Shown here: one piece after another, positions 127-26,780 of the stretch
Position numbering within the stretch: the first letter of the stretch is position 1
Layout: each line of letters opens with the position of its first letter
Source of the DNA: an uncultured Gemmatimonadota bacterium
Lineage (GTDB): Bacteria; JAAXHH01
Length of the DNA: 64,000 nucleotides
Direction: 5' to 3'
Assembly: GCA_951812955.1 (NCBI GenBank)
Contig: OX638340.1
Coordinates: forward strand, 2,368,001 to 2,432,000
Program-made: the position numbers and the translations under genes
The notes under the pieces: generated by a model
What the model saw: the letters and a program-made list of their open reading frames with translations, nothing else
Database searches by the model: none
Told to the model about the DNA's origin: nothing

Positions 127-1479
127 ATGGAAGCCTGGATTTTTGTCCACAACCCCTTCGACAGATACCTCACCGATTTTAAGCGGATCTTCGACGCGTG
201 GCAGGAAGGCGGCGTCACCGGCATCGTGGTGGGCTATCTCCACTTCGAGCTGGAGGACGGAACTCGGATTCCGGTCTTCGGCAGCGACCCCGCAGTGTAC
301 CGGTCATTCGGCGTAGATCCGCCCGCAGAGACGCCCCGCGACCGGGAGAAGGAACGCCTTTTCGCCGCCATGCTCGACGACGCGGCGAACCGCGGATGGC
401 ACATCATCACCTTCGGCGCCGGCCTGGGCGGGGGACGCCTGCCCGCGGTGGAAGATCCATACGGCGCCATCAGCCACGCCGCGGCGGTCCAGGACGCCAT
501 GAACGCCCTGCCCCAGGCCCACGGATTCCTCATCGACGGGCCAGGGGAGCAGCACTACGAACTCGCCTTCCACCACGGAGGCGAACTCTTCGAGATCCGG
601 CCCGGGGAGGACGAGCGATTTGGTGCGCTAGGGTATGACCTCGACCGGCTCCAAAGGGGTATCGAACACCTGAGGACGCGGTTTCACCAGTTGACACCGG
701 CCGAAGTGCGCTATCGCGCGCCCGGCGGCATGCTGGCGGGCATGCAGCTTTTCGACATTAACGAGGATGCCCTGTACTGGCTGCGCGCACGCCGGGAAAC
801 GGCGCTTGGATTCATGGCGGCCACGCATGAGCAGGTTGGGAAACTCAATCGGAAGGTGGAACTCGGCGGCATTCCGCGCACGGCGGCGTTCTCCTCGCTG
901 ACCTGCCAGGACTATCACGCAATGGCCTCGTGGTTCGACTTTATCTTTCCCAAGCACTACTACTGGCACCGGGGATTCGACGGCATGTACGGGACCGTCT
1001 CCCGCTGGGTGCAGCGGCTGCGGAAATGGAACCCGTCGCTCACCGAGGAAGACGCATTCGACGTGGTCAAACTGCTCTTCGGCATCGATCTGCCGGGCGT
1101 GCGCACCCTGATGGACATGGAGATGGGGTTCTCCGACGAGTTCTTCTCCACCATCGTGTACGGGGAAACCCGCCGGGCACTGGAGGCCATCGGCGATACG
1201 GACAAGTGCATCTGCTGGGTCTCGACCGGCCGTGCGCCCCACGCGGGCGACGCCATGCCGGCCCGTGACCTGCACGGCATCTTAAGCGCCTCCAGGGAAG
1301 CCGGTCTGAAGCGCTTCCTCTTCCATCCCGATCCGGATATCGGCGCGCCCGAGTGGCATATCCTCACCAACTTCTGCGGTAATCCATGGCAGGAGTCGAA
1401 CGACGCAGTCTACTGGCCGCCCGACACGCCGAGGCTCGACTCCTTCAGTCACGGACGCAAGCCCACGCGGACCGATTAG
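127..1479 (+). CDS. hypothetical protein (450 aa), function unknown
   Basis: Long ORF with an AGGAG Shine-Dalgarno 8 nt upstream of the ATG. Codon usage matches the neighbourhood. No family recognised. Confidence 0.5.
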   Translation: MEAWIFVHNPFDRYLTDFKRIFDAWQEGGVTGIVVGYLHFELEDGTRIPVFGSDPAVYRSFGVDPPAETPRDREKERLFAAMLDDAANRGWHIITFGAGLGGGRLPAVEDPYGAISHAAAVQDAMNALPQAHGFLIDGPGEQHYELAFHHGGELFEIRPGEDERFGALGYDLDRLQRGIEHLRTRFHQLTPAEVRYRAPGGMLAGMQLFDINEDALYWLRARRETALGFMAATHEQVGKLNRKVELGGIPRTAAFSSLTCQDYHAMASWFDFIFPKHYYWHRGFDGMYGTVSRWVQRLRKWNPSLTEEDAFDVVKLLFGIDLPGVRTLMDMEMGFSDEFFSTIVYGETRRALEAIGDTDKCICWVSTGRAPHAGDAMPARDLHGILSASREAGLKRFLFHPDPDIGAPEWHILTNFCGNPWQESNDAVYWPPDTPRLDSFSHGRKPTRTD

Positions 1480-1532
1480 GGAGCCCGTGGTACGGGCGCA
1501 GCTCAGACGCAGATCGGCCAGGGAACGAAACG

Positions 1533-2225
1533 ATGGCGCTATCGGATTTCACGGGACCGGATTACATCGACGCGTGGGCGGCGGACCTGGACCGGCGGTG
1601 GCCCGAGCGGGCGGCGATGGTGGATTGCGTCGTGCGGACGCTGGTCGAGTGGCAGGATGAACGGCGCGTACGAAATCTGCGCCAAGCGGGATCGCGCGAG
1701 AAGAAGTGTCATGCAGTGATCCGCCTCCTGGAACTGGGGATCGGCGCGGGTGGACTCGCCGAAGCCGTATTGGACGCGTTGGTCGATGCATCCGGTGAGG
1801 GGTCGCCCGATGCCGTCGAATACACGGGGATCGACATCGAGCCGGCACTGGTAAGCCATGGGAAGGAGCGGCTCATGGTGGCCGGGCACCATGACGCCCA
1901 CCTGATCCAGGCGGACCTGAAGGATGGCAACTGGATCTGCGGGAACGGCCCTTTCGACGCGGTCTACTCCCTCCAGACATTCCATGATCTCGGCGGCGTC
2001 GAAGCCCTCGAAACCGTCTACCGGCAGACCCACGGACTCCTCGCTCCGGGCGGCGTCCTGGTCAATGCGGATTTCGTCGTACCCTTCGAGAAAGACGATC
2101 CGGAACGTCCCCGGCGGTTGCCCGTCGAGACGCACCAGGACCTGCTGTCCAGCCTGGGTTACGTTGATTTCAAGTGTAAACTGCGGTTAGGAAAAATAGC
2201 GTGCATGGCGGCCAGGCGGCCGTAG
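1533..2225 (+). CDS. class I SAM-dependent methyltransferase
   Basis: Motif I LELGIGAGG and an acidic motif II (ADLKDG), followed by LAPGGVLV. The ATG at 1533 is in frame with the longer ORF that starts at 1386. Confidence 0.6.
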   Translation: MALSDFTGPDYIDAWAADLDRRWPERAAMVDCVVRTLVEWQDERRVRNLRQAGSREKKCHAVIRLLELGIGAGGLAEAVLDALVDASGEGSPDAVEYTGIDIEPALVSHGKERLMVAGHHDAHLIQADLKDGNWICGNGPFDAVYSLQTFHDLGGVEALETVYRQTHGLLAPGGVLVNADFVVPFEKDDPERPRRLPVETHQDLLSSLGYVDFKCKLRLGKIACMAARRP

Positions 2226-2262
2226 ACTTTCCAGGAATGACTTCTTTTATCCAGCCCTGCCC

Positions 2263-3015
2263 TCAAATCCCCAACTTCTTGCGAGCTACCGGCTCCCAGC
2301 CAAGGAGCATGCGGGCCTTGGCCATATTCATTTCCTCACGCTGCTCGTCCCCTGAGATGAAGAACACCTCGCAGCGGCCCTTGCCGGGCTGGTCGAGGAA
2401 CCTCAAGCCTGCCAGGTAGGCCTCGGCCATGTCTTCCTCGTCGGTGTAGTACAGCTTCGGATCTCCGGGTGGGTGCTTGATCCGGTCGATGTACATGGTC
2501 CGGTTGCAGGGTCCCGTGATCCGGTAGACGAGGAGGTTCATGTCATACTCGCGGGCGAAGTACCGGCAGATCCGCTCCGTTAGACCCTTGGTCAGACCGT
2601 ACACGTTCGGACCGTCCAGGGGAACCTCTTCCTCGGAAGGATACCAGGTCCGGTGCCGGTTGTGCACGCTCATGGTTCCGGTGTAGATCCCCCGCGTGAC
2701 ACCCATTTCGAAGGCGGTCAGCAACAGCACGTGATGGCCCAGGCAGTTGACGGTGTAGTTGTCGATCACCTGGTCCATGGTATGATGGCGATCGTGTCCG
2801 CCCTGGCCGCCCTTCATCGCCATGGTAATGAACCCGTCCATGCCGTCCAGGGCCTCGCGCACCGCGTCGGGATCGGTGATGGACCCCTGAATGTATTCGA
2901 TATCGTCGTTCCGGGGAGGATTGAGGTCCAGCACGCGCAGGCTATGGTGTTGCTGGAGATAGGGCGTGACGGCCGTCCCGACGAGACCGGAACCGCCGAC
3001 GAGGAGCAGGTTCAT
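2263..3015 (-). CDS. NAD(P)-binding Rossmann-fold epimerase/dehydratase-family protein
   Basis: N-terminal LLVGGSGLVG is a GxxGxxG dinucleotide-binding motif. Architecture is that of a short SDR/epimerase. Confidence 0.55.
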   Translation of the reverse strand: MNLLLVGGSGLVGTAVTPYLQQHHSLRVLDLNPPRNDDIEYIQGSITDPDAVREALDGMDGFITMAMKGGQGGHDRHHTMDQVIDNYTVNCLGHHVLLLTAFEMGVTRGIYTGTMSVHNRHRTWYPSEEEVPLDGPNVYGLTKGLTERICRYFAREYDMNLLVYRITGPCNRTMYIDRIKHPPGDPKLYYTDEEDMAEAYLAGLRFLDQPGKGRCEVFFISGDEQREEMNMAKARMLLGWEPVARKKLGI

Positions 3016-6571: not shown

Positions 6572-7330
6572 GATAACGGGAAAAGTACTCCCCGCCCGGG
6601 ACCGGGTCGCCGCATCCATGAAGCACATGCTGAAGGCGCGCCTGGCCGAACCGGTGCTGTTCGTTCCGGAACTGTGCAGCATCCAGTTGTGCATCAGGAC
6701 GGTCTCGCCGCACGCGACTTCCATGTTGATGGGTTCATGCTCTGCGACGACCGCCGCCGCCTGTTCTTCCGTCAGGAATCCGGACCCGTGGCTCGGATTA
6801 ACGAGGCTGCGGTGGGAACCCGGAATGATCTTTACGCAGCCGTTCTCCTCGACGGCGTCGTCCAGTGCCGTCCAGAGCGTTACGAGCGGGTCGCGGTCCA
6901 GGTCGGTCCAACGGTCCTGGTGCCACACGAGGGGCGTTCCTTCCCCGCTAGGCTTGTTCATGAACATCGCCCGGAAGCAGGCCACCGGCGTATCCGCTCC
7001 GTAGACCCTCTCGCAGATCTCCTCGAAGACTGGCTTCCGCATGAAGGAGTGGTACACAGGATCCAGTTCCAGGTCCTGGATCTTCCGGTAGCACAGCGTG
7101 GCCCCCTTGTGGCCCCTGGACTGGGGACCGGGCTTGTCGCCACCGCGCTCCGGGTCGCGGTCGAGCTGCATCATGACCCGGCTGTAGTCGATATCGGCCC
7201 TGCCCAGCATGATGTCGTCGATGCGCTCCTGCAGCCGCTCGAGTTCTCCCGGCTCCATCAAGGTGCCGAGACGCAGGTAGCCCTGCCGTTCGAATACCGC
7301 CCACTGGTCCTCGGTAATCCGGGCATTCAT
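6539..7330 (-). CDS. phytanoyl-CoA dioxygenase (PhyH) family Fe(II)/2OG oxygenase
   Basis: WHQD, IIPGSH and a C-terminal H/R facial triad. Looks like a PhyH-family oxygenase. Confidence 0.8.
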   Translation of the reverse strand: MNARITEDQWAVFERQGYLRLGTLMEPGELERLQERIDDIMLGRADIDYSRVMMQLDRDPERGGDKPGPQSRGHKGATLCYRKIQDLELDPVYHSFMRKPVFEEICERVYGADTPVACFRAMFMNKPSGEGTPLVWHQDRWTDLDRDPLVTLWTALDDAVEENGCVKIIPGSHRSLVNPSHGSGFLTEEQAAAVVAEHEPINMEVACGETVLMHNWMLHSSGTNSTGSARRAFSMCFMDAATRSRAGSTFPVIFGEGAMAAAQ

Positions 7331-7402
7331 GGATTTCGCTCCTGTCTGTCAGCGCAAAGGCCGTGGTTTGTCCTGTGTACCGAGTCACGCTGTATTGGCC
7401 CG

Positions 7403-8521
7403 CTAGAGCAATCGTGCGAAACGAAACGCTTCATTGTCTATAGTCGTCGGCTGTCCCAGCGCCGTCTCGGCCATCCATTCGCCAAAGGCGCAGGAGAACT
7501 TGAACCCGCCTCCGCTGAATCCGCAGCCCACGGTAACCCGGTCATAGGCCGGGTGGCGGTCGAGCACGGGCAGGTAATCCTTCGTACTGGTGTACATGCA
7601 GATCCGCATTGCGGTGAGCGGTCCGTCGGCATCGGGTATGTAACGGCGCAGGCACGCCCGGACCTCCTCCTCGTCGTCGGGTCGGACGCCGCGGTCCAGT
7701 TGATCGGGATCCGAAGTCTCCCCGTAATTGTGCAGGGCCAGCTTGAACCCCGGATGGTCGGGCATCATGGGGAAACCGTAGTACTCGCCGTCCGGCTCCG
7801 GCGCGGGGATCTGCCAGATGGGCAGCGATCCCACGTCGAAGCAGGCCGCGTTCCGCGCGGGCCATACCCAGGCCAGGGGCTGGCGGCTGACCGTCAGGGA
7901 AATGCCCAGGTCCGCGATCAGCGGGGCGGTCCACGAACCGCTGCAGAAAACGACCTGGTCCGCGCAGTAACGGCCACGGTCCGTCTCGACTTCCACGCAG
8001 TCGCCCGTTTCCTTCCAACCGGTCACGGTCTCGCGGCCGTGTATCTCGGCGCCGCGGCGCATCGCCTGTATGAGGTGGCTCGCGATGCCCAGTTCCGGAC
8101 GCAACAGGCCGCCGTTCGGATCGTAAAGGCCGTGGTAATCGGACGTCAACGTGAACTGCGGGTACCGATAGGCCAGTTCGTCGGCGGTAAGGACCTCGTG
8201 CCTGACTTTGCCCTGCAAATGGTCCCATGTGCCGGTGTTCGCCATGCGCAGGTAGCCGGTCGTCACCAGGATCTGCTGGCCGGTCTCGCCCTCGAGCAGC
8301 CGCCACAGTTCGAAGGACCGGCCGATGAAGGGTTCGAAGGGCGTATCCACGTAGACCGCCGTCTTGGTGTGGCGGGAATACCCGTGGGAACTCCCCTGGG
8401 CGTGAGGCAGATCGAAGCGTTCCAGTCCGAGGACCTTCGCGCCCCGTCCTCCAAGGTGGTAGCATGTGGCCGAACCCATGGCGCCAAGACCCACTACGAT
8501 GACGTCAAAGTGTTTACCCAT
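7403..8521 (-). CDS. FAD-dependent sarcosine/N-methyl-L-tryptophan oxidase family protein
   Basis: N-terminal FDVIVVGLGAMGSA FAD fold. YYGFP and CGFSGGGFKF motifs as in MSOX/SolA. The start is taken at the internal M (MGKHFD). Confidence 0.8.
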   Translation of the reverse strand: MGKHFDVIVVGLGAMGSATCYHLGGRGAKVLGLERFDLPHAQGSSHGYSRHTKTAVYVDTPFEPFIGRSFELWRLLEGETGQQILVTTGYLRMANTGTWDHLQGKVRHEVLTADELAYRYPQFTLTSDYHGLYDPNGGLLRPELGIASHLIQAMRRGAEIHGRETVTGWKETGDCVEVETDRGRYCADQVVFCSGSWTAPLIADLGISLTVSRQPLAWVWPARNAACFDVGSLPIWQIPAPEPDGEYYGFPMMPDHPGFKLALHNYGETSDPDQLDRGVRPDDEEEVRACLRRYIPDADGPLTAMRICMYTSTKDYLPVLDRHPAYDRVTVGCGFSGGGFKFSCAFGEWMAETALGQPTTIDNEAFRFARLL

Positions 8522-9101
8522 CCTTCCCCCTCTGCTCCATGTGTCGCACCAGGTCCGGGAAAAACCGCAGGAAGTGCCCTTCCATTTCTCCGTAGTTGGC
8601 CTCGAGTTCCTCCACCGATCCCGCCAGCGTGTTGGGCCGTCGGAGGCGCATGGACAGGCCATTCAGCGCCCGGCCGACCCCGGAAGTTTCATGGTAGCCC
8701 TGCAGCCAGTCGTGTTCCACCATGTGCCGGATCACCCTGGTCATGACCGGCGGCATTTCGCCTCGATAGTCGCGGAGGGACCCGTAAGTCCTGTCGATGA
8801 ACTCGGTCAGCGGAACGTCCGAGAAGTTCGACCAGTTCCTCGCGAGAAAATGGTCGTAGCACACGTCCACGATGATTCCGGCGAATCTCCTGCGGCCGCT
8901 GCTGATGAGCGCCTTGCTCTCGCGCACCACGTCGTGGCTGTCGGTGAAACGGTCCACGGCCACGTGGCTTCGCATGCCCTGCATGACTGCGCCGTTGTAC
9001 GGCTGCCGGTCCACCGGTCCCCGCACGAAATCGGCCATGAGGTTCCCCACGCGGGATTCGGGCGTATCTTCTGCGAAATACAGGTGGGCCAGGAAGTTCA
9101 T
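8514..9101 (-). CDS. acpH: acyl carrier protein phosphodiesterase
   Basis: MNFLAHLYFAE...GNLMADFVRG...DHFLARNWS matches the N-terminus and core of AcpH. 195 aa. Confidence 0.8.
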   Translation of the reverse strand: MNFLAHLYFAEDTPESRVGNLMADFVRGPVDRQPYNGAVMQGMRSHVAVDRFTDSHDVVRESKALISSGRRRFAGIIVDVCYDHFLARNWSNFSDVPLTEFIDRTYGSLRDYRGEMPPVMTRVIRHMVEHDWLQGYHETSGVGRALNGLSMRLRRPNTLAGSVEELEANYGEMEGHFLRFFPDLVRHMEQRGKDG

Positions 9102-15157: not shown

Positions 15158-16825
15158 GTGTCAAGGGATTTCACCGGTAAAAGGGTTACCGTACTGGGCC
15201 TCGGCGTGCTATCGGGCGGCGTCGCTTCCGCGCGGTATTTCGCCGAGCGGGGCGCGGACGTCACCGTTACGGATCTGCAGCCGGCAGAAGCGCTTCGGAA
15301 GTCCATCGACGCGCTCGCGCCATGGCCGGTCCGCTACGTGCTCGGTGAGCACCTCGATGAGGACATTACCGGAGCGGACCTCGTGGTGGTCGGCCCCGCC
15401 GTCCGGGACGACAGTCCCTTCCTCCGGCTGGCGCGGGACCGGGGCATTCCGCTGACCACCGAAACGAACCTGGTCTTCGAGAACTGCAGACGGCCCATCA
15501 TCGGCATTACGGGCAGCAACGGGAAGACCACGACCACCCGCCTTATCGGGGCGATGTTCCATGCGGTCGACCCGGCTACGCTCGTGGGCGGAAACATCGG
15601 CCGGTCCGTGCTCAACGAGCTTGCGGATCTGGACGTTGCAGATGGCCAGGACGAGGCGTCAGGTCCCGGCGCAACGCCCGGAACTTGCCCTGGTGCGACG
15701 CCCGGCGCCGGAAGCACTCGGGTCAGGCCGACAGATGAAAGCCCCGTGATTCTCGAGCTGTCCAGCTTCCAGCTTCACCGCCTGGCCTGGATCCGGCAAA
15801 GCCCCGGTGTGGCCGTGGTGACGAACCTGTCTCCGAATCACCTGGACTGGCACGGTACCTTCGACGCCTACGAAGAGGCCAAGCAACACATCGTGCATTA
15901 CCAGTCGCCGGAAGACGTGGTCGTCCTGAACGCCGATGATGAGCGGCTGCGCGGGTGGGCGGCGTGCTGTCCGGGACGGATAGCCTGGTTCAGCATGGAG
16001 GGACCGGTCGAGACCGGATGCTACGTGCGGGAAGGACAGGTAGTCTACCGCGGCCCAGCGGAGGGAAGTGGCGTATCGGAAAGTAGTGACGCATCGGAAG
16101 AACACGGCCCGGTGGACGGGCACGATTCAGCGGACGGAGGCGGTCCGGCCGAACGCGGCCTGCCAGGCGAGCGCGTCGTGTGTCCCGTGGACGCCCTCCG
16201 GCTCCCGGGTCCGCACAACCGGGCCAACCTGCTGGCCGCCGTGACGGCTGCGAGCCTGTGGGGGATCCCGGCATCGGTCATCCGGTCGACGGTCGAGGCG
16301 TTCCGCGGCGTGGAACATCGCCTGGAAGAAGTGGCCGTAATCGATGGCGTGGGGTACTATAACGATTCGGCCTGCACCACGCCGGCTTCGACGATCACGG
16401 CCCTCCGGGCTTTCGACGCACCAGTGGTCCTGATCGCAGGCGGGTACGACAAGGGTATGTCGTTCGACGGCATGGCATCGGTACTCGTCCGCCGCGCCCG
16501 GGCGGCCGTCCTGATCGGCGCGACCGCGGATGCGATCGAGGCAGCGATCGGGAAAGCCGGGGTGGCTCATGCGGCTGGCGGGAAAGCCAACGCGGCTCAT
16601 GCGACCGGCGGGAAAACCGGTACAACGGACGCACTGACCATCGCCCGTTCCGATTCGCTCGATGACGCCGTGCGGCAGAGCGCCGGCCTGGCGCGGCCTG
16701 GAGACGTGGTGGTGTTGTCACCCGGCTGTGCGAGTTACGACATGTTCACCAACTACGAGGAACGCGGACGGCGGTTCAAGGAAGCCGTGGCCGCGCTGGC
16801 GCGAAACGCGGACGGTAACGCGTAG
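15158..16825 (+). CDS. murD: UDP-N-acetylmuramoylalanine--D-glutamate ligase
   Basis: VLGLG...GITGSNGKTTTT Mur-ligase P-loop, NHLDWHG, and the C-terminal DAVVLSPGCASYDMF. The protein is 555 aa because of three low-complexity Gly/Ala/Ser/Pro/Asp-rich inserts. Confidence 0.85.
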   Translation: MSRDFTGKRVTVLGLGVLSGGVASARYFAERGADVTVTDLQPAEALRKSIDALAPWPVRYVLGEHLDEDITGADLVVVGPAVRDDSPFLRLARDRGIPLTTETNLVFENCRRPIIGITGSNGKTTTTRLIGAMFHAVDPATLVGGNIGRSVLNELADLDVADGQDEASGPGATPGTCPGATPGAGSTRVRPTDESPVILELSSFQLHRLAWIRQSPGVAVVTNLSPNHLDWHGTFDAYEEAKQHIVHYQSPEDVVVLNADDERLRGWAACCPGRIAWFSMEGPVETGCYVREGQVVYRGPAEGSGVSESSDASEEHGPVDGHDSADGGGPAERGLPGERVVCPVDALRLPGPHNRANLLAAVTAASLWGIPASVIRSTVEAFRGVEHRLEEVAVIDGVGYYNDSACTTPASTITALRAFDAPVVLIAGGYDKGMSFDGMASVLVRRARAAVLIGATADAIEAAIGKAGVAHAAGGKANAAHATGGKTGTTDALTIARSDSLDDAVRQSAGLARPGDVVVLSPGCASYDMFTNYEERGRRFKEAVAALARNADGNA

Positions 16826-16865: not shown

Positions 16866-17717
16866 ATGGCCATAGAAACCGTGGGCGTCATCGGATGTGG
16901 GCTGATGGGGGCGGGCATCACGCAGGTTTGCGCCGAGGCGGGGTACCGGACGATCGTCCGCGAGGCGTCAGGCGAATTGGTAAGCGGAGGCATCAGCCGA
17001 ATCGACGGCGTCCTGTCGCGCAACGTATCTAAGGGGAAGATGTCGGCAGACGAAAAGGCGGCCGTACTCGGACGCATCACGGGCACCACCGAATTCGACG
17101 ATCTGGCCGATTGCGACCTGGTGATCGAAGCGGTCACCGAGAACCTGGAAACCAAGCAGGAGGTCTTCCGGATCCTGGACGGCATCGCCTCGCCGGAGGC
17201 CATCCTGGCCAGCAACACCTCATCCATCTCCATCACCGAACTGGCTTCGGCGACGGACCGGCCGGAGCAGGTCCTGGGACTGCATTTCTTCAATCCCGTG
17301 CCCGTGATGCTGCTTATCGAGATGGTCATCGGACTGCAGACCAGCGAGAAGACCGTGGCAACGGCCCGGCAGTTCGGAGAATCACTGGGCAAGCAGGTGA
17401 TCGAAGTCAGGGACACGCCCGGTTTCATCGTAAACTACCTCCTCATCCCGTACCTGCTCGACGCCGTGCGGCTGGTCGAATCGGGCGTGGCTACGAAGGA
17501 GGATATCGACGCGGGAATGGTCCTGGGGTGCATTCACCCGCTCGGTCCGCTCAAGCTCCTCGACTTCATCGGACTGGACACCACGCTGTACATCGCGGAA
17601 GTGCTCTACGACGCCTTCCGCACCGACCGGTACGCCGCACCGCCTCTGCTCCGTCAGATGGTCTCCGCCGGCATGAACGGGCGCAAGAGCGGGCGGGGGT
17701 TCTACGGGTATGGTTGA
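16866..17717 (+). CDS. hbd: 3-hydroxybutyryl-CoA / 3-hydroxyacyl-CoA dehydrogenase
   Basis: VGVIGCGLMGAGI NAD-binding motif, the NTSSISIT signature and the C-terminal dimerisation domain. 283 aa. Confidence 0.85.
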   Translation: MAIETVGVIGCGLMGAGITQVCAEAGYRTIVREASGELVSGGISRIDGVLSRNVSKGKMSADEKAAVLGRITGTTEFDDLADCDLVIEAVTENLETKQEVFRILDGIASPEAILASNTSSISITELASATDRPEQVLGLHFFNPVPVMLLIEMVIGLQTSEKTVATARQFGESLGKQVIEVRDTPGFIVNYLLIPYLLDAVRLVESGVATKEDIDAGMVLGCIHPLGPLKLLDFIGLDTTLYIAEVLYDAFRTDRYAAPPLLRQMVSAGMNGRKSGRGFYGYG

Positions 17718-17750
17718 ACTGCGCAAAGGGTATGATTGAACTGCGCAAAG
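17707..17750. repeat. 22-bp tandem duplication (GGTATGRTTGAACTGCGCAAAG x2) spanning the hbd stop codon
   Basis: Two adjacent copies that differ at one position. Confidence 0.6.
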
Positions 17751-17843
17751 CCGATCAATCCGGACGTAGAACGTGTGGAAGGCAATGTCGATCGAGCGGT
17801 GTGTGTCGTCGATTGGATCTGAGTCGATTGGATCTGTTTCACC

Positions 17844-17857
17844 TGTACAATTGTACA
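17844..17857. promoter_or_regulatory. perfect 14-bp palindrome TGTACAATTGTACA upstream of the M24 peptidase gene
   Basis: Exact inverted repeat (GTAC-N4-GTAC core). A 15-bp tandem GTCGATTGGATCTG x2 lies at 17806-17835 and a CTGCAGGT x2 just after. Confidence 0.4.
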
Positions 17858-17939
17858 ATACATGCTGCTGCAGGTATGGTGCCTGCAGGTGTTTTATTAC
17901 GAATTTAGCAGGACAGAACCCAAAGCGAGAGGCATTTGG

Positions 17940-19079
17940 ATGAACGCTACACCCGATAACGAGGCCGTTCTGCTCATCGCGGACAGCGAAAGCAGTGCCG
18001 ACATGCTGTACGCTACGGGGCTGTTCGTGCCGGACCCTTTTACCTACCTGCGGGTGGGCGGCCGGTCGACCATCATGATGAGCGACCTGGAGATCGACCG
18101 TGCACGAGCCCAGTCGAAGGTCGATGAAGTAGTATCGCTCACGGACTACACGGACCGTGCGAAGACAAACGGAAAGGCGGACCCACGAATTGTGGACGCC
18201 GTCATCGAGTTGCTCCGGGACCGGGAAGTGAAGGGCGTCAGGGTGCCGTACGGCTTCCCCCTGGGGTACGCGGATAAACTACGGGATCGAGGATTCGAGG
18301 TGGCGGCGAAGGAGGATCCCTTCTGGGACGAGCGGCCGGTGAAATCCGACGACGAGGTGGCGGCCATCTCGGAGGTCTCCCGGTACACGGAAGACGCCCT
18401 GCGCATGGCCTTTGGATTGCTCGCCGAGGCCGATGTGAAGGACGGCGTTCTCCACGGTCCGGAAGGTCCGTTGACTTCCGAGTATATCCGTACGCGCATC
18501 CACGTATTTCTGCTGGAACGGGATTGCATCGCCCAACACACCATCGTCGCGGGGGGCGTCCAGGGATGCGACCCCCACAACGGAGGTTCCGGTCCGCTGC
18601 GCGCCGGCGAGCCCATCATCTTCGACCTCTTTCCCAAGTCCACGAAGACGGGCTATTTCGCCGACATCACCCGCACAGTGGCGAAGGGTCCGGTATCCGA
18701 TGCGTTCCGACGGCTATACGATACGGTGCTGGAAGGTCAGGAAACCGCGCTCTCCAGAGTACGGGCCGGGGTGGACGGCCAGGAGATCCACGGGGAAGTG
18801 GAACGGCTGTTCGAAAGCAGCGGCTACGAGACAGGCGCGAAGGACGGACGCATGCAGGGCTTCTTCCACGGCACGGGCCACGGCTTCGGCCTGGAGATCC
18901 ATGAACCGCCCCGCATCTCAAAGGTATCTCAGACCCTCGTTGCCGGACACGTCGTGACCGTGGAACCGGGTCTGTACTACCCCGGCTTCGGCGGCGGCGT
19001 TCGGATCGAGGACAATGTGGTCGTTACCGAGGATGGATGCGTCAACCTGACGCGGCTGGAGAAGGTATTCGAGATGTAA
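17940..19079 (+). CDS. M24-family Xaa-Pro aminopeptidase / creatinase-like metallopeptidase
   Basis: Creatinase-N-like N-terminus and the C-terminal pita-bread fold, with HGTGHGFGLEIHEPP and the metal-ligand pattern of M24B peptidases. Confidence 0.8.
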   Translation: MNATPDNEAVLLIADSESSADMLYATGLFVPDPFTYLRVGGRSTIMMSDLEIDRARAQSKVDEVVSLTDYTDRAKTNGKADPRIVDAVIELLRDREVKGVRVPYGFPLGYADKLRDRGFEVAAKEDPFWDERPVKSDDEVAAISEVSRYTEDALRMAFGLLAEADVKDGVLHGPEGPLTSEYIRTRIHVFLLERDCIAQHTIVAGGVQGCDPHNGGSGPLRAGEPIIFDLFPKSTKTGYFADITRTVAKGPVSDAFRRLYDTVLEGQETALSRVRAGVDGQEIHGEVERLFESSGYETGAKDGRMQGFFHGTGHGFGLEIHEPPRISKVSQTLVAGHVVTVEPGLYYPGFGGGVRIEDNVVVTEDGCVNLTRLEKVFEM

Positions 19080-19098
19080 AGCAGACAAGCCCGATACG

Positions 19099-19770
19099 CT
19101 AAGCAATAGACGTAAGAAAACTGCGCACATCACCCAGAACGGGATGATCCAGATCCCAGTAACCGTTCTTCGCCGCCACACCTACGGATACGTGAGGGTC
19201 CGGCTTTGTAGCCAAGTATGCGTGGGCACGGGCTTTATATGGTCTGTCTACGGACAGGCCAGGTATCGCTTTGACACAATTTAAAAAGTCGTCGATACAC
19301 TGATCCTCTGGTTTGTCTTTGAAACTTTCGCATAGAAGTGTCTCCAGCATACCCGGACGATTGTCGCCAGGCAAAATCAACACCGTCACTTTCGGACTGG
19401 TATCGGTAGGAAAACCAGGTTGCGCAGGTAAAGGTAAATCTGCATTTTCCAAGGACGATCTAACACTTTGGAACGCACTCACGGCGCATGTCTCCGCATC
19501 GCGAACGATGCCGATACTTCGCACGTTTGATTCGAAACCCGACGATGCCACGATGGCACTAAGGAACCCGCGGAGTCCAGTCACGCCACCAAAATCGTGA
19601 ATCTGGATATCCACTTGTTCTAGAGACAAGTGCTCAATGAACGCTTCGAAAAAGTTAAACTCGTCCCTGCCCTCCACAAGAAGCTGGGTTTCCGATTCGA
19701 TTTGTATTCGCGCCATATTAACGAACATCCAGGCCGTGTTGAACGGCAGCGTCGATGGACTCGTGCTCAT
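19099..19770 (-). CDS. small TOPRIM-like protein (RloB/DUF4276-like) partner of the upstream ATPase
   Basis: An N-terminal LLVEGRDEFNFFEAF (EGxxE) motif, followed by IGIVRDAE and VLILPGDN acidic motifs, as in the TOPRIM-like partners of OLD/AbiL-type ATPases. The start is ambiguous: M1 gives a 53-bp overlap with the ATPase gene, and M19 lies 1 nt after the ATPase stop. Confidence 0.55.
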   Translation of the reverse strand: MSTSPSTLPFNTAWMFVNMARIQIESETQLLVEGRDEFNFFEAFIEHLSLEQVDIQIHDFGGVTGLRGFLSAIVASSGFESNVRSIGIVRDAETCAVSAFQSVRSSLENADLPLPAQPGFPTDTSPKVTVLILPGDNRPGMLETLLCESFKDKPEDQCIDDFLNCVKAIPGLSVDRPYKARAHAYLATKPDPHVSVGVAAKNGYWDLDHPVLGDVRSFLTSIA

Positions 19771-20755
19771 AGGTAACGCAACGAATCATTTCCTCTACGT
19801 ATTCGAGCCTGTGCAGACTGAACCTATCGGCACTCAATGCTTCATGGGCCGCCTCCACGCATTCTTGGCTGTGAGTGGTCGCAAATACCTGTACGTGGAA
19901 AAGTTTGGCCGCTTCATCTACCGCTCGCCAGACGTCAGCAAGAACGGAGTGATGAAGGCCGTTTTCGATCTCGTCCACGAGTACGAGACCATTCGGCGTG
20001 GTGCCTATGGCAAGGACGAAGCGAGCGATTTGTGTCATGCCTTCACCCATAGATGGCAGAGGTATTAGTTCGCTCAACCCGATGTCGCCCCATATCATGG
20101 GCGAACCGTTTGAGTAAATGACTTCGATGCTTTCCAGTCTAGGTTCAACGGCTTTCATCGCACTTAAAAGTATATCTCCCCGCTTGTGCCTTCTCAGGTT
20201 TGCAAGTCTGGACGCATCATCGTGCAGGCTCCTTTTTAATCGCGGAAGGAGAATGATCGCCGGAAATTGAAAGCCATGAGTTGGTTGCTCTATTTCAAAC
20301 TTATCCCCTCTAATGTGAATGTGACTGTCGGTACCAACACCTGAATTATCGAAATACGTGAAGGTCAACGTACAATCATCAGAATAATCCATTCCCGGGC
20401 GATCTAAGGGAACTTCGGTTTGGGGCTGCCACGACGACGAAATCTGTAATTCCATTTCACCATACGTTGAATGTGTTCCTGCTATCTCGATGGTACTCCC
20501 CGTATCCAACCTGTTAAAAAGCTGATCCCAGACATTCCATCCCGATTCACCGAGGGTTCCTTGTTCCAGACCACGGACGACATGAGGATCTGATGCCATT
20601 CGCGCATTTCCAGCGCTTCCCAGCAGGAATACAGCCTCGAGCAAACTGGTCTTCCCCGAGTTGTTCTTGCCAGCAATGAGATTGATATCGCTCAGGCGGT
20701 TAACTTCGAGTCTGTTGAAGCAGCGGAAACCATGTATCCGCAAGCTTTCTATCAT
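19718..20755 (-). CDS. AAA_21/ABC-type ATPase, OLD-family-like (candidate defence ATPase)
   Basis: Walker A GKNNSGKTS, a signature-like SMGEGM, Walker B LVLVDEIENGLH and an H-loop TTHS. 345 aa. The gene sits in a roughly 42% GC islet. Confidence 0.75.
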   Translation of the reverse strand: MIESLRIHGFRCFNRLEVNRLSDINLIAGKNNSGKTSLLEAVFLLGSAGNARMASDPHVVRGLEQGTLGESGWNVWDQLFNRLDTGSTIEIAGTHSTYGEMELQISSSWQPQTEVPLDRPGMDYSDDCTLTFTYFDNSGVGTDSHIHIRGDKFEIEQPTHGFQFPAIILLPRLKRSLHDDASRLANLRRHKRGDILLSAMKAVEPRLESIEVIYSNGSPMIWGDIGLSELIPLPSMGEGMTQIARFVLAIGTTPNGLVLVDEIENGLHHSVLADVWRAVDEAAKLFHVQVFATTHSQECVEAAHEALSADRFSLHRLEYVEEMIRCVTYEHESIDAAVQHGLDVR

Positions 20756-20980
20756 TATGATTACTCCATCTGCATCAGATGTTCCGATCCGTTCGGGGAA
20801 AACAGGGACTCCTTTAAAAGATCTCTTGTAACATACATAGTACCGGATTCGCTAGAAAAACCAAATCTTTCCTGGACTATTCTACTCTGTACTGAATACC
20901 CGACTTCGCAGCGCACTTTCAGCGTCTGGAAGTGGGATCAGGCAAGGTAAGTCACGATCTTCCAGACGCCATTTCCGGCT

Positions 20981-22306
20981 TCAATCCACCAGCGCCTGGT
21001 AGATAAGCGCCCGAATGCGTTGGTGGTCGTCGAGACCCTGGGCCGGGATGACCTGCGTCATGTACGAAACCACCAGTTCTTCCGCCGGATCGACCCAATA
21101 CGTGGAGTGATACGCCCCGCCCCAGGTGTACGTCCCCGGTGAACCCGGCAACCCGCTCCAGCCGATCTCCTCCGTGATGCCGAACCCCAGGCCGAAACCG
21201 CCGCCGTCTCCCTGCCACGCGTCGTGGACGTGATCGACAGTCATGAGTTCCACGGTCTTGGGCGACAGGATTCGCACTCCGTCCAGCGTGCCCCCGCGGC
21301 GCAACGCCTCGAGGAATCGGGCATAATCTCCCGGTGTGGAGACGAGTCCCGCGCCGCCCGAGAAGCTCTTGCGCGGTCCTTCCAGATACATGCCCTGCCC
21401 GACCATGTGGCCCGGGTCGGGCGCACGCGCCATCCCATTTTCCTCCGTCACCGAGTAAACGACGGTGAGGCGGTCCGCTTTCTCAGGTGGCACGTAGAAG
21501 TGCGTATCCACCATGCCCAGCGGCTCGATAATCTCGACCCGCAGAAATTCGTCCAGCGACATCCCGGAAGCCCGCTCGATCACCACGCCCAGGATATCCG
21601 TGGCGTAGCCGTATACAAACTTCTCGCCCGGATGAGCATCCATGGGCAGATTCCCCATGCGCTCCACGGTATCGGCAATTGGTTCGTCGCGATCGGCGAA
21701 ATACCAGCCCTCTATGCCGGCCTCCTCCCAGCGCTCGGTGCCGGGGCCCCAGCCATACCCGATTCCGGCGGTGTGCGTAAGCAGGTCGCGCACCGTGATC
21801 TTGCGATCGGCGGGAACTGTCTCGAATCCCCCATCCTCATTGCTCACGGCGACGGTCGTACTGTCGAACTCGGGGATAAAGTCACCCAGGTCCTGGTCGA
21901 TCAGCAGGCGTCCTTTCTCCTGCAGTATCATCACACCCACCGAAATAACCGCCTTGGTCTGCGAAGCGATGCGGAAAAGGTCCGTAACCTCGAGCGGTTC
22001 CCCCGCCTCGCGGTCTCGATAGCCGAAGGCCCTGGCGTAAACCACATGCCCGCGCCGTCCGATCACGAGCGCGGCGCCCGGCAGCCGTTCTTCCTTGACG
22101 TACGCTTCAAGCGCCGCGTCGATGCGGGCAAGCCGTTCGGAAGAAACGCCCGCCTCCTCGGGGCTGGCCGGGGCGAAAGTCTGAGCAAAAGCCCGCGCCG
22201 CGTCGTGCGCGCAGAAGAGCAACGCCGCGAGCAGGGGAAGCAGCGGAAGCCGGTTGCGAAAGCGTCGTATTGACGACGAGGGTTTAACAGAACTCCACGT
22301 TAACAT
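20981..22306 (-). CDS. secreted serine hydrolase (beta-lactamase/PBP4-like, class C family)
   Basis: Signal peptide. ASQTK (SxxK) active-site motif and YGY/HTAG motifs downstream. Confidence 0.8.
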   Translation of the reverse strand: MLTWSSVKPSSSIRRFRNRLPLLPLLAALLFCAHDAARAFAQTFAPASPEEAGVSSERLARIDAALEAYVKEERLPGAALVIGRRGHVVYARAFGYRDREAGEPLEVTDLFRIASQTKAVISVGVMILQEKGRLLIDQDLGDFIPEFDSTTVAVSNEDGGFETVPADRKITVRDLLTHTAGIGYGWGPGTERWEEAGIEGWYFADRDEPIADTVERMGNLPMDAHPGEKFVYGYATDILGVVIERASGMSLDEFLRVEIIEPLGMVDTHFYVPPEKADRLTVVYSVTEENGMARAPDPGHMVGQGMYLEGPRKSFSGGAGLVSTPGDYARFLEALRRGGTLDGVRILSPKTVELMTVDHVHDAWQGDGGGFGLGFGITEEIGWSGLPGSPGTYTWGGAYHSTYWVDPAEELVVSYMTQVIPAQGLDDHQRIRALIYQALVD

Positions 22307-22421
22307 GACAATTAAATCCCTTCTCCACCTTGGTCATCGAAAGCGTCGCGTTCTCGAATGTCATCGTATACCACCATGATAAATACGTTCGCCGACAGTA
22401 AATAGTTGTTTCTTGTCCCTT

Positions 22422-22500
22422 TCCTGGCCTGCCGCCTGCTATACCTGGCCTGCAGCCTCGACTGCTATTCCTGCCCTGCCACCTGCTATTCCTGGCCGGA
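22422..22500. repeat. about four tandem copies of a roughly 19-bp unit (CCTGSCCTGCMRCCTGCTATW)
   Basis: Intergenic, between the hydrolase start and the Fic gene end. Confidence 0.4.
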
Positions 22501-23433
22501 ACTGCCCAATCTTTGATCCGTAGGTGTGCTTCGAGGCCGATCCTGTCCCCGGTTATCGAATGCCCTCCCGATCTTCCAGACCCCTTTCTCACGAAATGCG
22601 GGAATGGACTGCCGGCGGGCGGCGTTGGTTACGGCGGGCGCCGACAGGCCGTTCTGCCTGATGTAGTCCGAAAGCCGGATAATTTCTGCGCCTTTCAAGT
22701 AGCTCAACCACTTGTGCAGTGATTCCATTAGTCCAAGGAATACGATATTTTCCATAGCCTTAGTCGATGCGTTATCGCCATATTCCCTGAACGCCTGGTA
22801 GTACCTTTCCTTTTCGGAATTTCGAATGATGATACGCGGCAGACCGAGTTGCAGAAGCTGGAAATTCATGATGACCCGTCCCAGTCTGCCGTTTCCGTCA
22901 CAGAAGGGATGTATATATTCGAAAGCCAGATGAAAAAGTGCGATCTTATCCAGAAAGTAGGAATCCAGGTCGCTGACATAGTCGATCAGGAGATTGTCCA
23001 TCATGCGTTCCACGTGCTCGGGCTCGGGCGCAATATGCGTGCCCACTCGCACGTATTCGCCTTTCTGTCGGAATCGTCCGGCGATGGAATCATCGATGCC
23101 GCCAATCAGCATCTGATGGAATCCCAGGATAAGGGTCTCACTCAACTCGCTGTCTTTCGCCCTGCTACGTTTGTATTCCATGACCCGGGCAAGGTTCTTC
23201 GCCTCGTAGACTTCACGGATGGATACGTTGCGGGAGAGCATCTGTTCCAACAGGATCCGCTCTGTTTCTTCGAGCGACAGCGTGGAATTCTCGATGGCGT
23301 TCGAGTTGTATACGCCCTCGGGTATCTCAACCTCGTCGATCATGGACAAGAGCGAGTCCTTGCCCATTCGCAAGATGTCGAATTCACGCTTCAGCGATCG
23401 TATGCGGTTTTTCATTGGTCGTGTAGAGGGCAT
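22486..23433 (-). CDS. Fic-family protein (AMPylase/Doc fold)
   Basis: Canonical HPFCDGNGRLGR Fic motif with NSNAIENSTL upstream. The start is taken at MPSTRP, immediately downstream of an AT-rich promoter region. Confidence 0.8.
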   Translation of the reverse strand: MPSTRPMKNRIRSLKREFDILRMGKDSLLSMIDEVEIPEGVYNSNAIENSTLSLEETERILLEQMLSRNVSIREVYEAKNLARVMEYKRSRAKDSELSETLILGFHQMLIGGIDDSIAGRFRQKGEYVRVGTHIAPEPEHVERMMDNLLIDYVSDLDSYFLDKIALFHLAFEYIHPFCDGNGRLGRVIMNFQLLQLGLPRIIIRNSEKERYYQAFREYGDNASTKAMENIVFLGLMESLHKWLSYLKGAEIIRLSDYIRQNGLSAPAVTNAARRQSIPAFREKGVWKIGRAFDNRGQDRPRSTPTDQRLGSSGQE

Positions 23434-23596
23434 ATAAGTTAAATTAGTATATTCACTTATTATTGTCAAAATAATGTGAATAATCTCGTACATATCGTTA
23501 TCATTAACTAATTTATTAGCAATATAGGTTAACATACTCCCAATCCTCCCGACCCGAGGCCCCGGGGGGATTTCCACCGGAGCGGAGGGCCATCCC

Positions 23597-23654
23597 CGGG
23601 GCATCCTCGAGGCCCTCCAAAGCGCCATCACTGGGGCATCCTCGAGGCCCTCCC
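23597..23654. repeat. 22-bp direct repeat GGGGCATCCTCGAGGCCCTCC x2 in the divergent Fic/GNAT intergenic region
   Basis: Two identical copies 14 bp apart. A CRTGTTAAWCAR repeat also occurs at about 23700-23730. Confidence 0.4.
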
Positions 23655-23769
23655 AGGCCGGGCTCCTCTCAATCCGATCCCGGTTCCATGCATCCAGCCG
23701 CGTGTTAAATCAGCCGCATGTTAATCAAGTAACCCGACAAAAAAGGCCATCCACCCAGGACCCGTTTCC

Positions 23770-24774
23770 ATGAAGATCATCACCCTCGAAATCGACCAGG
23801 CGGCTGCTCTGGCGGACTTCTACAACGAGCAATTCGCGGCCATGCCGTATTGCTATCCCGTCACGGAAGATGAATTCGAAACCGGTGTCTGGTGGCATGA
23901 GGAGCGGGACGGCGAGCCGTACGAAGACCTGTCGGACGAGTCGTTTCTAGTGGTGGAAGACGACGGCAATGTCGCGGGTTTTGCCCACGTGGCCGTCTGC
24001 CGCAAGGGCGAGGAGGACCACCGCATCGGCCTCCATCCGATCGAGGAGCTGTTGAAGGACCGGATCGGCCTTATCCGCTTTTTTCACTACCGGGCCGGTG
24101 CGCGGCCGGCAGGCCAGGCGCTCCTGGAAGCGGCGGAGGCCCACTTGCGAAGCTTCGGCATCGACCAGATTCGCGCCTTCAGTTACTTCGGATACCGGTT
24201 CTACCGCTTCTGTCACGCGTTCCAGTCCGACCGGATGGGCCACGTGGGCGCGCTGCTCAGTATGAACGACTACCGCATAACCCGGGGTATCATCCTCCTC
24301 GAGCTCCCGGACTTTGACGTACCGGATCCCGTATTGCCGGACGCCGGTGTGACCACGTGCTTCGAAATTCAGGCCGGGCGCGGCAGGCTGCCCAACATGG
24401 CATTCCAGCTTTTCCGCGGAGATCAGTGCATTGGCCAGGGATTCGCCCAGTCGCTAGGGGATTTCTGCCGGTCGTCCCAGGCGCAGGAAACCTTCTACAT
24501 ACCCTGGTTCTCCATCGAAGGAAGTCCGGTGGGAGGGCGCGTCAGCGAGGGGGAGCAGGGCAAGGGATTCGGACGGTACATGATGGAGGTCCTGCTGCGG
24601 GAGATGCGCCAGCTCGGTTACCGCCACGCCACCACCCAGGCGAACACGGGCAGTCCCCGGCCCATTCTTCTGTACACGAATATGGGATACGAGGTAGTGG
24701 ACACCAACTACCAGTATTTCAAGGACCTGGAGAAGGAAATCCCGCTGGAGGTTTTTAAAGAGGTCGGGTTTTAG
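23770..24774 (+). CDS. GNAT-family N-acetyltransferase-like protein (two-lobed)
   Basis: C-terminal [13 protein letters not shown]...GY acetyl-CoA-binding-like motif. 334 aa. Confidence 0.5.
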
Positions 24775-26780
24775 GAGGCCGCGACCAACGCCTTCGCCTT
24801 TTCGACGATATTCCCGGCAGTGAAGCCTAGGTTCTCGAACACGACCTCGTAAGGGGCCGAGGCGCCGAAACGTTCCAGGCCGATGACGTCGCCCCGCTGC
24901 CCCACGTACCGCTCCCAGCCCAGTGTTACGCCGGGTTCGATAGCCAGGCGCGCGGTGACCGACGCCGGAAGTACGGACTCCCGGTATTCCCCGGTCTGCG
25001 CTTCGAACAGCTCCCAACTCGGCATGCTGACGACGCGCGCGGAGATGCCTTCACCGGCCAGCGCGTCCCGGGCCTCGAGGGCCAGGCAGACTTCCGAACC
25101 CGAGGCGATGAGGATCAGATCCGGATGCCCGTCGGCATCGGCGAGGACATAGGCGCCCATGTGGAGGCCGTCGGCGGGCGCGAGCTCCGCACGGTCCAGC
25201 ACGGGGAGTTTCTGGCGGGTCAGCGCCAGGGCGACGGGGCCGTCCTTGCGCCGAAGCGCCGCGACCCACGCTTCCGATGTCTCTGCCGCGTCGGCGGGCC
25301 GGATGAGGGTCAGGTTGGGAATCGCCCGTAGCGACATGTAGTGCTCGATGGGCTGGTGGGTCGGACCATCCTCGCCAAGTCCCACGCTGTCGTGGGTGAA
25401 TGCGTAGACCGGCGCGATGCCCATCAGCGCAGCCAGGCGGATGGACGGCCGCATGTAGTCCGAGAACACGAGAAATGTGCCGGCATAAGGTCGCAGACCC
25501 CCGTGGAGCGTCATTCCGTTCAGCGCGGCGGCCATGGCGTGTTCGCGTACGCCGAAGTGAAGGTTCCGCCCACCGTAGTTGCCGGCGGCGTAATTTGTTT
25601 CGGCTTCCACCATGGTGTTGTTGGACCCTGCCAGGTCCGCCGAACCGCCCAGCAATCCGGGAATACGTTGGGACAGGGCGTTGATGGTCACGCCGGACGC
25701 CTGCCGCGTGGCCATGGGTCCCTGGTCGGACGAAAAGGACGGCAGATTCTCGTCCCATCCGGCCGGCAGTTCGCCGTCCATGGCCTGCTTCCAGCTCTCC
25801 GCCAGGTCCGGAAAAGCGGCCGCGTAGGCATCGAAGGCCTGGTGCCAGGCCAGTTCCCACCCCTTGCCGTACAATGGCATCTGCTGGAAGTATGCCCGCA
25901 CTTCGTCGGGTACGAGGAACTTCGGTTCCAGGGGCCAGCCCAGGTTCTGCTTGGTCAGTTCCACCTCGTCCTCGCCGAGGGGCTCGCCGTGGGCCTTGGA
26001 TGTCCCGGCCTTGTTGGGACTGCCGTAACCGATGACCGTGCGGCAAATAATGACCGAGGGACGGTCCGTCTCCTGCCGCGCCAGTTCCACCGCGGCTTCG
26101 ACCCGGGCGAGGTCATTGCCGTCCAGGACCCGCTGCACGTGCCATCCGTAGGCGTCGAACCGCAGGCCCGTGTTTTCTGAGAAGGCCAGGTCCGTACCGC
26201 CGTCGATCGTGATGCTGTTGTCCAGGTAGATGACGATCAGCCGGCCGAGTCCGAGGTGCCCGGCGAGGGAACAGGCCTCGGAGGCGACGCCCTCCATCAT
26301 GTCCCCGTCGCTCGCGATAACGTAGGTGAAGTGGTTGACGATTTCGTGGCCTGCGCGGTTGTACCGTGCTGCCAGATGGGCCTCGGCCATGGCCATGCCC
26401 ACGGCGTTCGAAATGCCCTGGCCGAGCGGACCCGTGGTGGTCTCCACGCCGGGCGTATCGCCGTATTCGGGATGGCCGGGCGTCTGGCTCTCCCATTGCC
26501 GGAAGTTCCTGATCTCATCGAGGGACAGGTCGTAGCCGGTGAGGTGCAGCATGGCGTAGAGCAGCATCGACCCGTGCCCACCGGAAAGCACGAAGCGGTC
26601 CCGGTTCGGCCAGTCGGGATTCTTCGGATTGTAGCGCATGAGACGCGTCCACAGCACGTAGGCGATGGGCGCGGCTTCCATGGGAAGGCCGGGATGGCCG
26701 CTGTTGGCCTGCTGAACGCCGTCCACGGCCAACATGCGGATGGTGTTGATGCATCGTTGCTCGAGATCGTTCGCTGACAC
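24771..26780 (-). CDS. tkt: transketolase
   Basis: N-terminal thiamine-diphosphate motif ANSGHPG..MEAAP, a GDG...N ThDP-binding region, and the pyrimidine and C-terminal domains. GTG start. 669 aa. Confidence 0.9.

Follow-up and report, generated by a model that had tools for sequence, protein, structure and literature searches.

A catalogued ATPase-DUF3226 gene pair in an uncultured Gemmatimonadota bacterium as a candidate split OLD-like defence module

The window that we analyzed is a stretch of 64,000 nucleotides from an uncultured Gemmatimonadota bacterium (contig OX638340.1, positions 2,368,001 to 2,432,000 of the forward strand), and it contains at positions 19099 to 20980 a two-gene cassette encoding an ABC ATPase and a small, stand-alone TOPRIM-like protein of the DUF3226 family. 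Judged by sequence, the cassette is a member of the catalogued candidate system PDC-M38 of PADLOC and does not represent a new kind of system. The original prediction made from the DNA letters had left room for an undescribed split-OLD variant, but both proteins match the PDC-M38 models of Payne et al. 2024. By analogy with better-studied pairs of an ATPase and a TOPRIM nuclease, we consider it fairly probable that the cassette is a split OLD-like, translationally coupled defence module in which the ATPase gates a nuclease and whose outcome is abortive. The reading of the cassette as a defence module, already part of the original prediction, is supported on the three points on which it was examined: the small protein has a TOPRIM-like fold and the corresponding matches, the two genes occur together in all 33 testable loci, and the ATPase is neither RecF nor SbcC. 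From these findings we infer a defence activity.

The cassette is composed of the following features, all on the minus strand:

19718-20755, minus strand: gene A, 345 aa, SMC/Rad50-type ABC ATPase; predicted sensor and regulator
19099-19716, minus strand: gene B, 205 aa, stand-alone DUF3226 protein; predicted metal-dependent nuclease effector
19714-19720, minus strand: gene junction TAAtATG, with the ATPase stop at 19720-19718, 1 nt, and the DUF3226 start at 19716-19714
20756-20980, minus strand: upstream noncoding region, 225 bp, 46% GC, putative promoter/operator

The two proteins and the junction of their genes

The region 19099-20980 contains two open reading frames (ORFs), 19718-20755 and 19099-19770, with the ATPase gene first and the small gene downstream on the same strand, as had been predicted. 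The motifs that had been read in the ATPase are all present, namely, the Walker A motif GKNNSGKTS (G29-S37), a signature-like MGEGMTQ (236-242), the Walker B motif LVLVDE (D261-E262), and the H-loop ATTHS (H295), and all are invariant among 20 homologues. Its Pfam matches are AAA_21/AAA_15. The insert at residues ~75-170 is mostly beta strand, and no coiled coil was found in the protein. The top PADLOC match is the AbiLi model PDLC02336 over the full length (3e-53; residues 1-345 versus 1-340 of 340), and a second AbiLi model, PDLC02335, scored only 1.6e-10. The PDC-M38A model PDLC04611 matched with 5e-49, and four more M38A models matched with 1e-24 to 1e-38. AriA models covered two partial stretches (5.6e-24 and 3e-18), and GajA models covered the ATPase motifs only (2e-14).

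The small protein matches Pfam DUF3226 (PF11536) with 98 bits versus a gathering score of 27, with most of the model covered, and the PADLOC PDC-M38B models PDLC04624 (5e-12) and PDLC04623 (6.5e-10). It consists of a TOPRIM domain and a C-terminal helical domain of the OLD type. Hence, the prediction of a stand-alone TOPRIM-like partner stands, but the RloB/DUF4276-like identity proposed for it has to be replaced by DUF3226. In searches against PDB chains, the single sequence and the A1 profile gave chance matches only (haloalkane dehalogenase, SMA2266), and the more diverse A2 profile gave a marginal match to PH0156 (E value of 0.006). The family is large, with 3,932 representatives of 50%-identity clusters at an E value of ≤1e-3, almost all of them stand-alone proteins of ~200 aa.

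The protein contains the motifs LLVEGRDEF, VRDAE, and GMLET. The first of these provides the EGxxE motif noticed originally, but the second acidic residue of that motif, E19, is acidic in only 47% of the family, and D18 is better conserved (75%). In 130 diverse DUF3226 sequences, conservation reaches 98% for E15, 99% for D73, 93% for E/D75, 98% for E125, and 98% for K161. The two-metal catalysis of Bp OLD offers a framework for these residues (PMC6755086): E400 and D455/D457 hold metal A; E508, in the first helix past the TOPRIM core, holds metal B; E404 and T506 stabilize the waters of metal B; K562 comes from the helical domain; and E400, D455xD457, E508, and K562 are all required for cleavage. 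We propose E15, D73-x-E75, E125, and K161 as the candidate active site of the DUF3226 protein and as the probable counterpart of E400, D455xD457, E508, and K562 of Bp OLD. Two cysteines, C140 and C147, lie seven residues apart on a predicted helix (136-150) and are 98 to 99% conserved in the same 130 proteins. We know of no equivalent of this pair in OLD, GajA, or AriB; the pair may bind a metal, act as a redox switch, or have a structural role. In the 443-aa protein P0241, two complete DUF3226 domains are fused in tandem, each 49 to 50% identical to the window protein, and its second copy carries RDAG instead of RDAE/D. P0241 could thus be a pseudo-dimer in which one of the active sites is degenerate, and the fusion hints that the DUF3226 nuclease acts in dimeric form.

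Read from the first ATG, the DUF3226 ORF has 223 aa (19099-19770), and read from the second ATG it has 205 aa. Because 24 homologues start exactly at the second-ATG methionine (the MARIQ position) and the NCBI product of an 87%-identical homologue has 206 aa, the gene most likely spans 19099-19716. The 53-bp overlap given in the original prediction is thus an artefact of reading from the first ATG, and the true spacer is 1 nt. A spacer of 1 nt between two genes is typical of translational coupling. The called genes are 2 nt apart in other genomes, and they abut or overlap by 1 nt on plasmids. The layout of the junction implies that the ATPase and DUF3226 genes are translationally coupled, which would give a fixed expression ratio of both proteins.

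Upstream of the ATPase gene, a ribosome-binding site (GGAG, 20767-20764) lies 8 nt ahead of the ATG, and an alignment of three upstream regions revealed a block at ~20872-20822 that is conserved in the related loci L001 and L002. The block contains a weak sigma-70-like pair, TTGGTT (20864-20859) and TACTAT (20842-20837), separated by 16 nt, and we regard it as a putative promoter/operator. A scan of the upstream gap yielded no sigma-70 consensus match at the threshold of 9/12 and no intrinsic terminator. The AT-rich promoter that had been suggested could not be confirmed: the gap has 46% GC and no sigma-70 match at the scan threshold; what it does contain is the conserved block and the GGAG.

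Pairing, genomic contexts, and ancestry of the cassette

Nine contig look-ups, genome and metagenome scans, and plasmid records provided loci in which the pairing could be tested. A homologous ATPase gene was present directly upstream and on the same strand in 33 of 33 testable loci, with small proteins that are 24 to 92% identical to that of the window, and these loci span several phyla as well as plasmids. Two further loci with just ~60 bp of contig upstream are outside this count. The ATPase and the DUF3226 protein are encoded by separate genes in all 33 related loci. A single-sequence scan of genome contigs recovered two close relatives only; the taxonomic breadth comes from metagenome loci and protein searches.

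The neighbours of the homologous pairs recur. The pair lies beside or inside type I restriction-modification (R-M) loci in L003, L009, and L036, and a Fic gene is also present in L009 and L036. HicAB genes are near the pair in L036. In two chromosomal settings, L005-L008 and L037 versus L038, the pair is directly upstream of a string of N6_N4 methylase, TIR, and ResIII genes. This recurring five-gene string (e.g., L005 5949-13909) consists of genes for the ATPase, the DUF3226 protein, an N6_N4 methylase of ~870 aa, a CAP12-PCTIR TIR protein, and a ResIII helicase of ~940 aa, sometimes with HepT/MNT inserted (L037, L038), and its presence in two chromosomal settings suggests that it may move as one unit. 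The locus L039 has two ATPase/DUF3226 pairs less than 7 kb apart, at 752-2722 (minus strand) and 6955-8630 (plus strand), surrounded by IS630/DDE transposases, an M78 peptidase with DUF4411, PIN/Phd toxin-antitoxin genes, and a SocA_Panacea gene.

Five ColE1/Rop-type plasmids of 3.8 to 4.7 kb from Salmonella, E. coli, and Klebsiella carry a 25 to 28%-identical pair as essentially their only cargo; examples are L010 (NZ_AP026957.1; 3.8 kb) and L011 (NZ_CP082125.1; 4,693 bp, E. coli). The plasmid pairs match the same PADLOC models as the window pair. In L010 and L011, the GC content of the pair is 31 to 33%, versus 48 to 49% for the remaining plasmid. Among 5,426 complete genomes, 8 contain the E. 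coli version of the pair. Its DUF3226 protein gave a weak match to the Mad4 (DUF4276) model (4e-4), which links the DUF3226 and DUF4276 TOPRIM families at the sequence level.

The base composition of the window cassette differs from its surroundings. The GC content of the islet 19099-20980 is 0.495, versus 0.61 to 0.615 for the backbone and 0.615 to 0.635 for the flanking genes, and the contrast is clearer in GC3, with 0.52 to 0.53 for the pair and 0.76 to 0.83 outside the islet. The original estimate of ~42% in a ~65% backbone was therefore off in its figures, but the contrast itself is real. In the window, and in 11 of the 12 related loci for which this was measured, the pair has a higher AT content than its flanks. 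We found no convincing direct or inverted repeats flanking the cassette, no tRNA near it (the sole tRNA of the window is at 49625), and no Rfam elements in window positions 17000-25000.

The same chromosomal site is occupied by the cassette in two related genomes, those of L001 and L002, the latter a Gemmatimonadota metagenome-assembled genome (MAG). The cassette proteins are 87 to 92% identical to those of L001/L002, and the products of the immediately flanking genes are 84 to 96% identical. The ratio of nonsynonymous to synonymous substitution rates (dN/dS) is 0.10 to 0.22 for the pair and 0.11 to 0.16 for the flanks, and the dS of the pair is similar to that of the flanks. Because of the shared site and the flank-like dS, we reject a recent insertion. 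The horizontal acquisition assumed in the original prediction is right as far as the foreign composition goes, but the event is old: the cassette is of foreign origin, yet old, vertically inherited, and kept by selection. The nearest subfamily (P0019, P0036, P0096, L002; small proteins 61 to 67% identical) comes from MAGs labelled Candidatus Poribacteria, Gemmatimonadota, and Desulfurellaceae, and the locus tags and accessions of these MAGs look like those of one metagenome project. This suggests that bacteria living together in one putative habitat exchanged the cassette recently.

The neighbouring genes in the window correspond to those originally named, a peptidase gene, a secreted-type hydrolase gene, and a Fic-family gene at a distance of about 1.7 kb:

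17862-19079, plus strand: M24 peptidase gene, neighbour of the DUF3226 gene
20981-22306, minus strand: beta-lactamase-family hydrolase gene, product with a signal-peptide-like N terminus; neighbour of the ATPase gene
22486-23631, minus strand: Fic gene, 1.73 kb from the cassette (Pfam Fic, 2e-20)

The Fic gene, too, is atypical in composition, with a GC content of 0.514 and a GC3 of 0.63, and its product gives PADLOC PDC-S04 and SoFic-like matches of ~1e-30 to 1e-36. It is 78% identical to the Fic protein of the type I R-M locus L009 (1154-2044), while the pair itself is 55 to 65% identical to that of L009. The gene order in L009 and L036 is HsdR, Fic (L036 1593-2501), HsdM/S, at least one gene, and then the pair; in the window, Fic is followed by a beta-lactamase-family gene of native GC content and then by the pair, with order and orientation unchanged. 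The window Fic gene and the pair may be what is left of a single ancestral defence island. The Fic ORF as called by program looks too long at its start, with homology to L001 and L009 beginning at ~residue 67-69 of the 381-aa ORF. Similarly, the start of the M24 peptidase ORF at 17862 looks too long; its homologues have 379 aa, a length that suggests initiation at 17937 (MNATPDNE). Farther away, a MurD-like ORF (15158-16825, plus strand; 555 aa) has low-complexity insertions rich in Gly, Pro, Ala, Ser, and Asp, such as GQDEASGPGATPGTCPGATPGAGS and SESSDASEEHGPVDGHDSADGGGPAERG, and its product is the least conserved flanking protein relative to L001 (72.5%).

A possible mechanism and competing explanations

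How might the two proteins work together? We hypothesize that in the uninfected cell the ATPase binds the DUF3226 nuclease and holds it inactive, in analogy to PARIS, OLD, Gabija, and HEC-04. A cue from a phage or plasmid, maybe an anti-restriction protein or an intermediate of replication or recombination, would alter the nucleotide or oligomeric state of the ATPase, and the nuclease would then be freed or activated, probably as a dimer. It would cut nucleic acid (DNA or tRNA) by two-metal catalysis involving E15, D73/E75, and E125, with K161 assisting, and replication of the invader would stop, possibly at a cost to the cell. Among known effectors, OLD and GajA cut DNA, and AriB cuts tRNA. 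Defence by HEC-04 depends on the Walker A motif as well as on the TOPRIM acidic triad. Our analysis establishes the domain identities, the fold, the conservation of catalytic-type residues, the strict pairing, the purifying selection, the defence-island and mobile contexts, and the foreign composition; a physical complex of ATPase and nuclease, its trigger and substrate, and the anti-phage phenotype of the pair are inferred.

A bolder version of this hypothesis, which we consider less likely than not, is that the DUF3226 pairs form a large, distinct branch, a "fifth class" of split OLD-like systems with a mechanism of their own. In such systems a minimal, coiled-coil-free ABC ATPase would gate a dimeric TOPRIM nuclease, and the Cys-x6-Cys pair might serve as a metal or redox switch. 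Some members might be guards wired to their methylase/TIR/ResIII or type I R-M neighbours and fire when restriction is inhibited.

Several points weigh against the cassette being a defence module. The PDC set was described by its authors as untested (Payne et al. 2024, bioRxiv 10.1101/2024.01.29.577857), and our literature search found no paper with DUF3226, PF11536, or PDC-M38 in its main text. HEC-01, a related candidate with an ATPase and a TOPRIM protein, gave no defence in a first assay, although protection was reported in a later study. At the level of the protein, the Pfam OLD-like_TOPRIM model matches with 17.9 bits, under the cut-off of 23.2, and Glu takes the second acidic position of the DxD motif in about half of the DUF3226 family; the proposed correspondence with Bp OLD is based on residue order, spacing, and secondary-structure position. 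The window copy is without an adjacent R-M system, and its stable vertical inheritance between housekeeping genes is less typical of fast-turnover defence islands. Finally, neither tblastn against 50,697 phage records nor a search of IMG/VR viral contigs gave a homologue.

Three other explanations have to be considered. The pair could be a guard of R-M systems that senses anti-restriction proteins or a failing methylase or restriction neighbour, as PrrC, RloC, and PARIS do, with the window copy being an orphan of reduced or altered function. This explanation partly overlaps the mechanism outlined above, and we regard it as unlikely. It would account for the repeated adjacency to type I R-M genes (L003, L009, L036), the fixed place upstream of the N6_N4 methylase/TIR/ResIII string in two chromosomal settings, the nomination of PDC-M38 from embedding in BREX, DISARM, or type I R-M loci, and the 78% identity of the window Fic protein to that of the L009 R-M locus, the two Fic genes being placed and oriented alike with respect to the pair. 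However, the pair also occurs without an R-M neighbour in the window, L001, L002, the ColE1 plasmids, and L039, and the purifying selection on the window copy is as strong as that on housekeeping genes, which is unexpected for a functionless orphan. In addition, PARIS works autonomously although it is triggered by an anti-restriction protein (PMC11464382).

Rather unlikely, in our view, is an addiction module, with the DUF3226 nuclease as the toxin and the ATPase as the antidote, which stabilizes the plasmid or island that carries it and has no dedicated anti-phage function. The pair is essentially the sole cargo of the 3.8- to 4.7-kb ColE1-type plasmids, some of its copies have classical toxin-antitoxin genes for neighbours (HicAB in L036, PIN/Phd in L039, and HepT/MNT in L037), its tight translational coupling sets the stoichiometry, and PARIS itself acts as a type II toxin-antitoxin pair (PMC13064643). 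Addiction is, however, compatible with defence, and many toxin-antitoxin-like pairs are defence systems. The ATPase gene precedes the nuclease gene, and the large "antitoxin" retains every motif for ATP hydrolysis, which argues for a regulated sensor over a simple labile antidote. The repeated embedding in R-M loci is precisely the criterion by which defence genes were nominated, and the window cassette is chromosomal, old, and under purifying selection, without a mobile element to stabilize. We consider it very improbable that the genes are a housekeeping pair of DNA repair or recombination, analogous to RecF and RecR (TOPRIM) or to Rad50/SbcC and its nuclease. The RecF model matches only residues 2-62, the N-terminal 61 residues, with 49.6 bits (cut-off, 172), and the SbcC (14.6 bits; cut-off, 478.5) and Rad50 (≤29.7; cut-off, ≥700) matches are confined to the P-loop region. 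Defence ATPases are almost as good structurally (PtuA, 16.8; GajA, 16.6; AriA, 15.3), and AbiLi and PDC-M38A are far better by sequence (1e-49 to 1e-53, full length). The patchy cross-phylum distribution at 61 to 67% identity, the foreign composition, the carriage on small plasmids, the duplication in one island (L039), and the lack of a coiled coil likewise argue against a housekeeping role.

The DUF3226 branch and known ATPase-TOPRIM systems

Modules that pair an ABC ATPase with a TOPRIM protein (OLD, Gabija, PARIS, AbiL, retron Eco8, HEC-04) figure prominently in prokaryotic immunity. Their DUF3226 branch is large and cross-phylum, and we found no experimental or descriptive literature on it. 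Our work adds to the PDC-M38 catalogue entry a confident fold, a candidate active site, a strict pairing statistic, and partner modules that recur. A tractable natural homologue exists in E. coli, on a plasmid of 4.7 kb. Confirmation of a defence role would turn a domain of unknown function into a nuclease effector with a name and enlarge the repertoire of OLD-like systems. The window copy is an ordinary, well-preserved instance; it shows that a module of this type can become fixed amid housekeeping genes and be maintained there by purifying selection.

The closest known relative is PDC-M38 itself, one of 145 candidates nominated for their embedding in BREX, DISARM, or type I R-M loci (Payne et al. 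2024, bioRxiv 10.1101/2024.01.29.577857). Its catalogue entry comprises the cassettes CAS_00138 and CAS_00155 (supplementary table). The window pair shares with it the matches to the A and B models, the adjacency on one strand, and homologues at type I R-M loci, and at the level tested nothing separates the two.

AbiL of Lactococcus (AbiLi/AbiLii) and RloA/RloB of Campylobacter also consist of two genes, for an ABC ATPase and a stand-alone TOPRIM/OLD-like nuclease; the window ATPase is AbiLi-like, and RloAB is likewise linked to type I R-M loci. They differ in the partner, which is RloB/AbiLii in these systems and DUF3226 in the window. The window partner gave no match to RloB (PF13707) in Pfam or to AbiLii in PADLOC at an E value of ≤0.1, and we therefore rejected AbiL in the strict sense. 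In the OLD proteins of class 1 (P2 Old, Ts OLD) and class 2 (Bp/Xcc OLD, Gabija GajA), the ATPase and TOPRIM parts are fused, whereas the window pair is made of two polypeptides. The window ATPase is also smaller (345 aa), the DxD motif of the partner reads D-x-E/D, and its OLD-like_TOPRIM match is subthreshold. A fused OLD (classes 1 to 3) was rejected because the ATPase and the nuclease are in two ORFs, with a stop at 19720-19718. Gabija combines GajA with an adjacent UvrD-type helicase, GajB, whereas the neighbours of the window pair are the M24 peptidase and the beta-lactamase-family gene. No UvrD-type helicase gene lies next to the window pair, and Gabija was rejected on this ground and because the GajA models cover the ATPase motifs only.

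PARIS (AriA/AriB, class 4 OLD) is also a split ABC ATPase and TOPRIM effector and, among such pairs, is the one whose mechanism is understood best: the ATPase keeps the nuclease sequestered until a trigger releases it, after which the nuclease dimerizes and cleaves tRNA (PMC11464382). However, AriB belongs to DUF4435 (PF14491) and the window partner belongs to DUF3226, and AriA is a hexameric scaffold of ~55 kDa with helical insertions, whereas the window ATPase has 345 aa, a beta-rich insert, and no coiled coil. PARIS was rejected for lack of a DUF4435 effector and of an AriA-type ATPase, and a phage- or satellite-borne system like PARIS was dropped given that phage records and IMG/VR gave no match. 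The structural representative of DUF3226 is PH0156 of Pyrococcus horikoshii (PDB 2P62), a structural-genomics entry with 15% identity to the window protein. A published tree of AAA15/21 defence ATPases lists TOPRIM-Old, DUF4435, RloB, and DUF4276 as partners and not DUF3226 (PMC11464382). Hence, the cassette resembles AbiL, PARIS, and OLD in its presumed way of working, yet it belongs to none of them because its partner is not RloB/AbiLii, DUF4276, or DUF4435.

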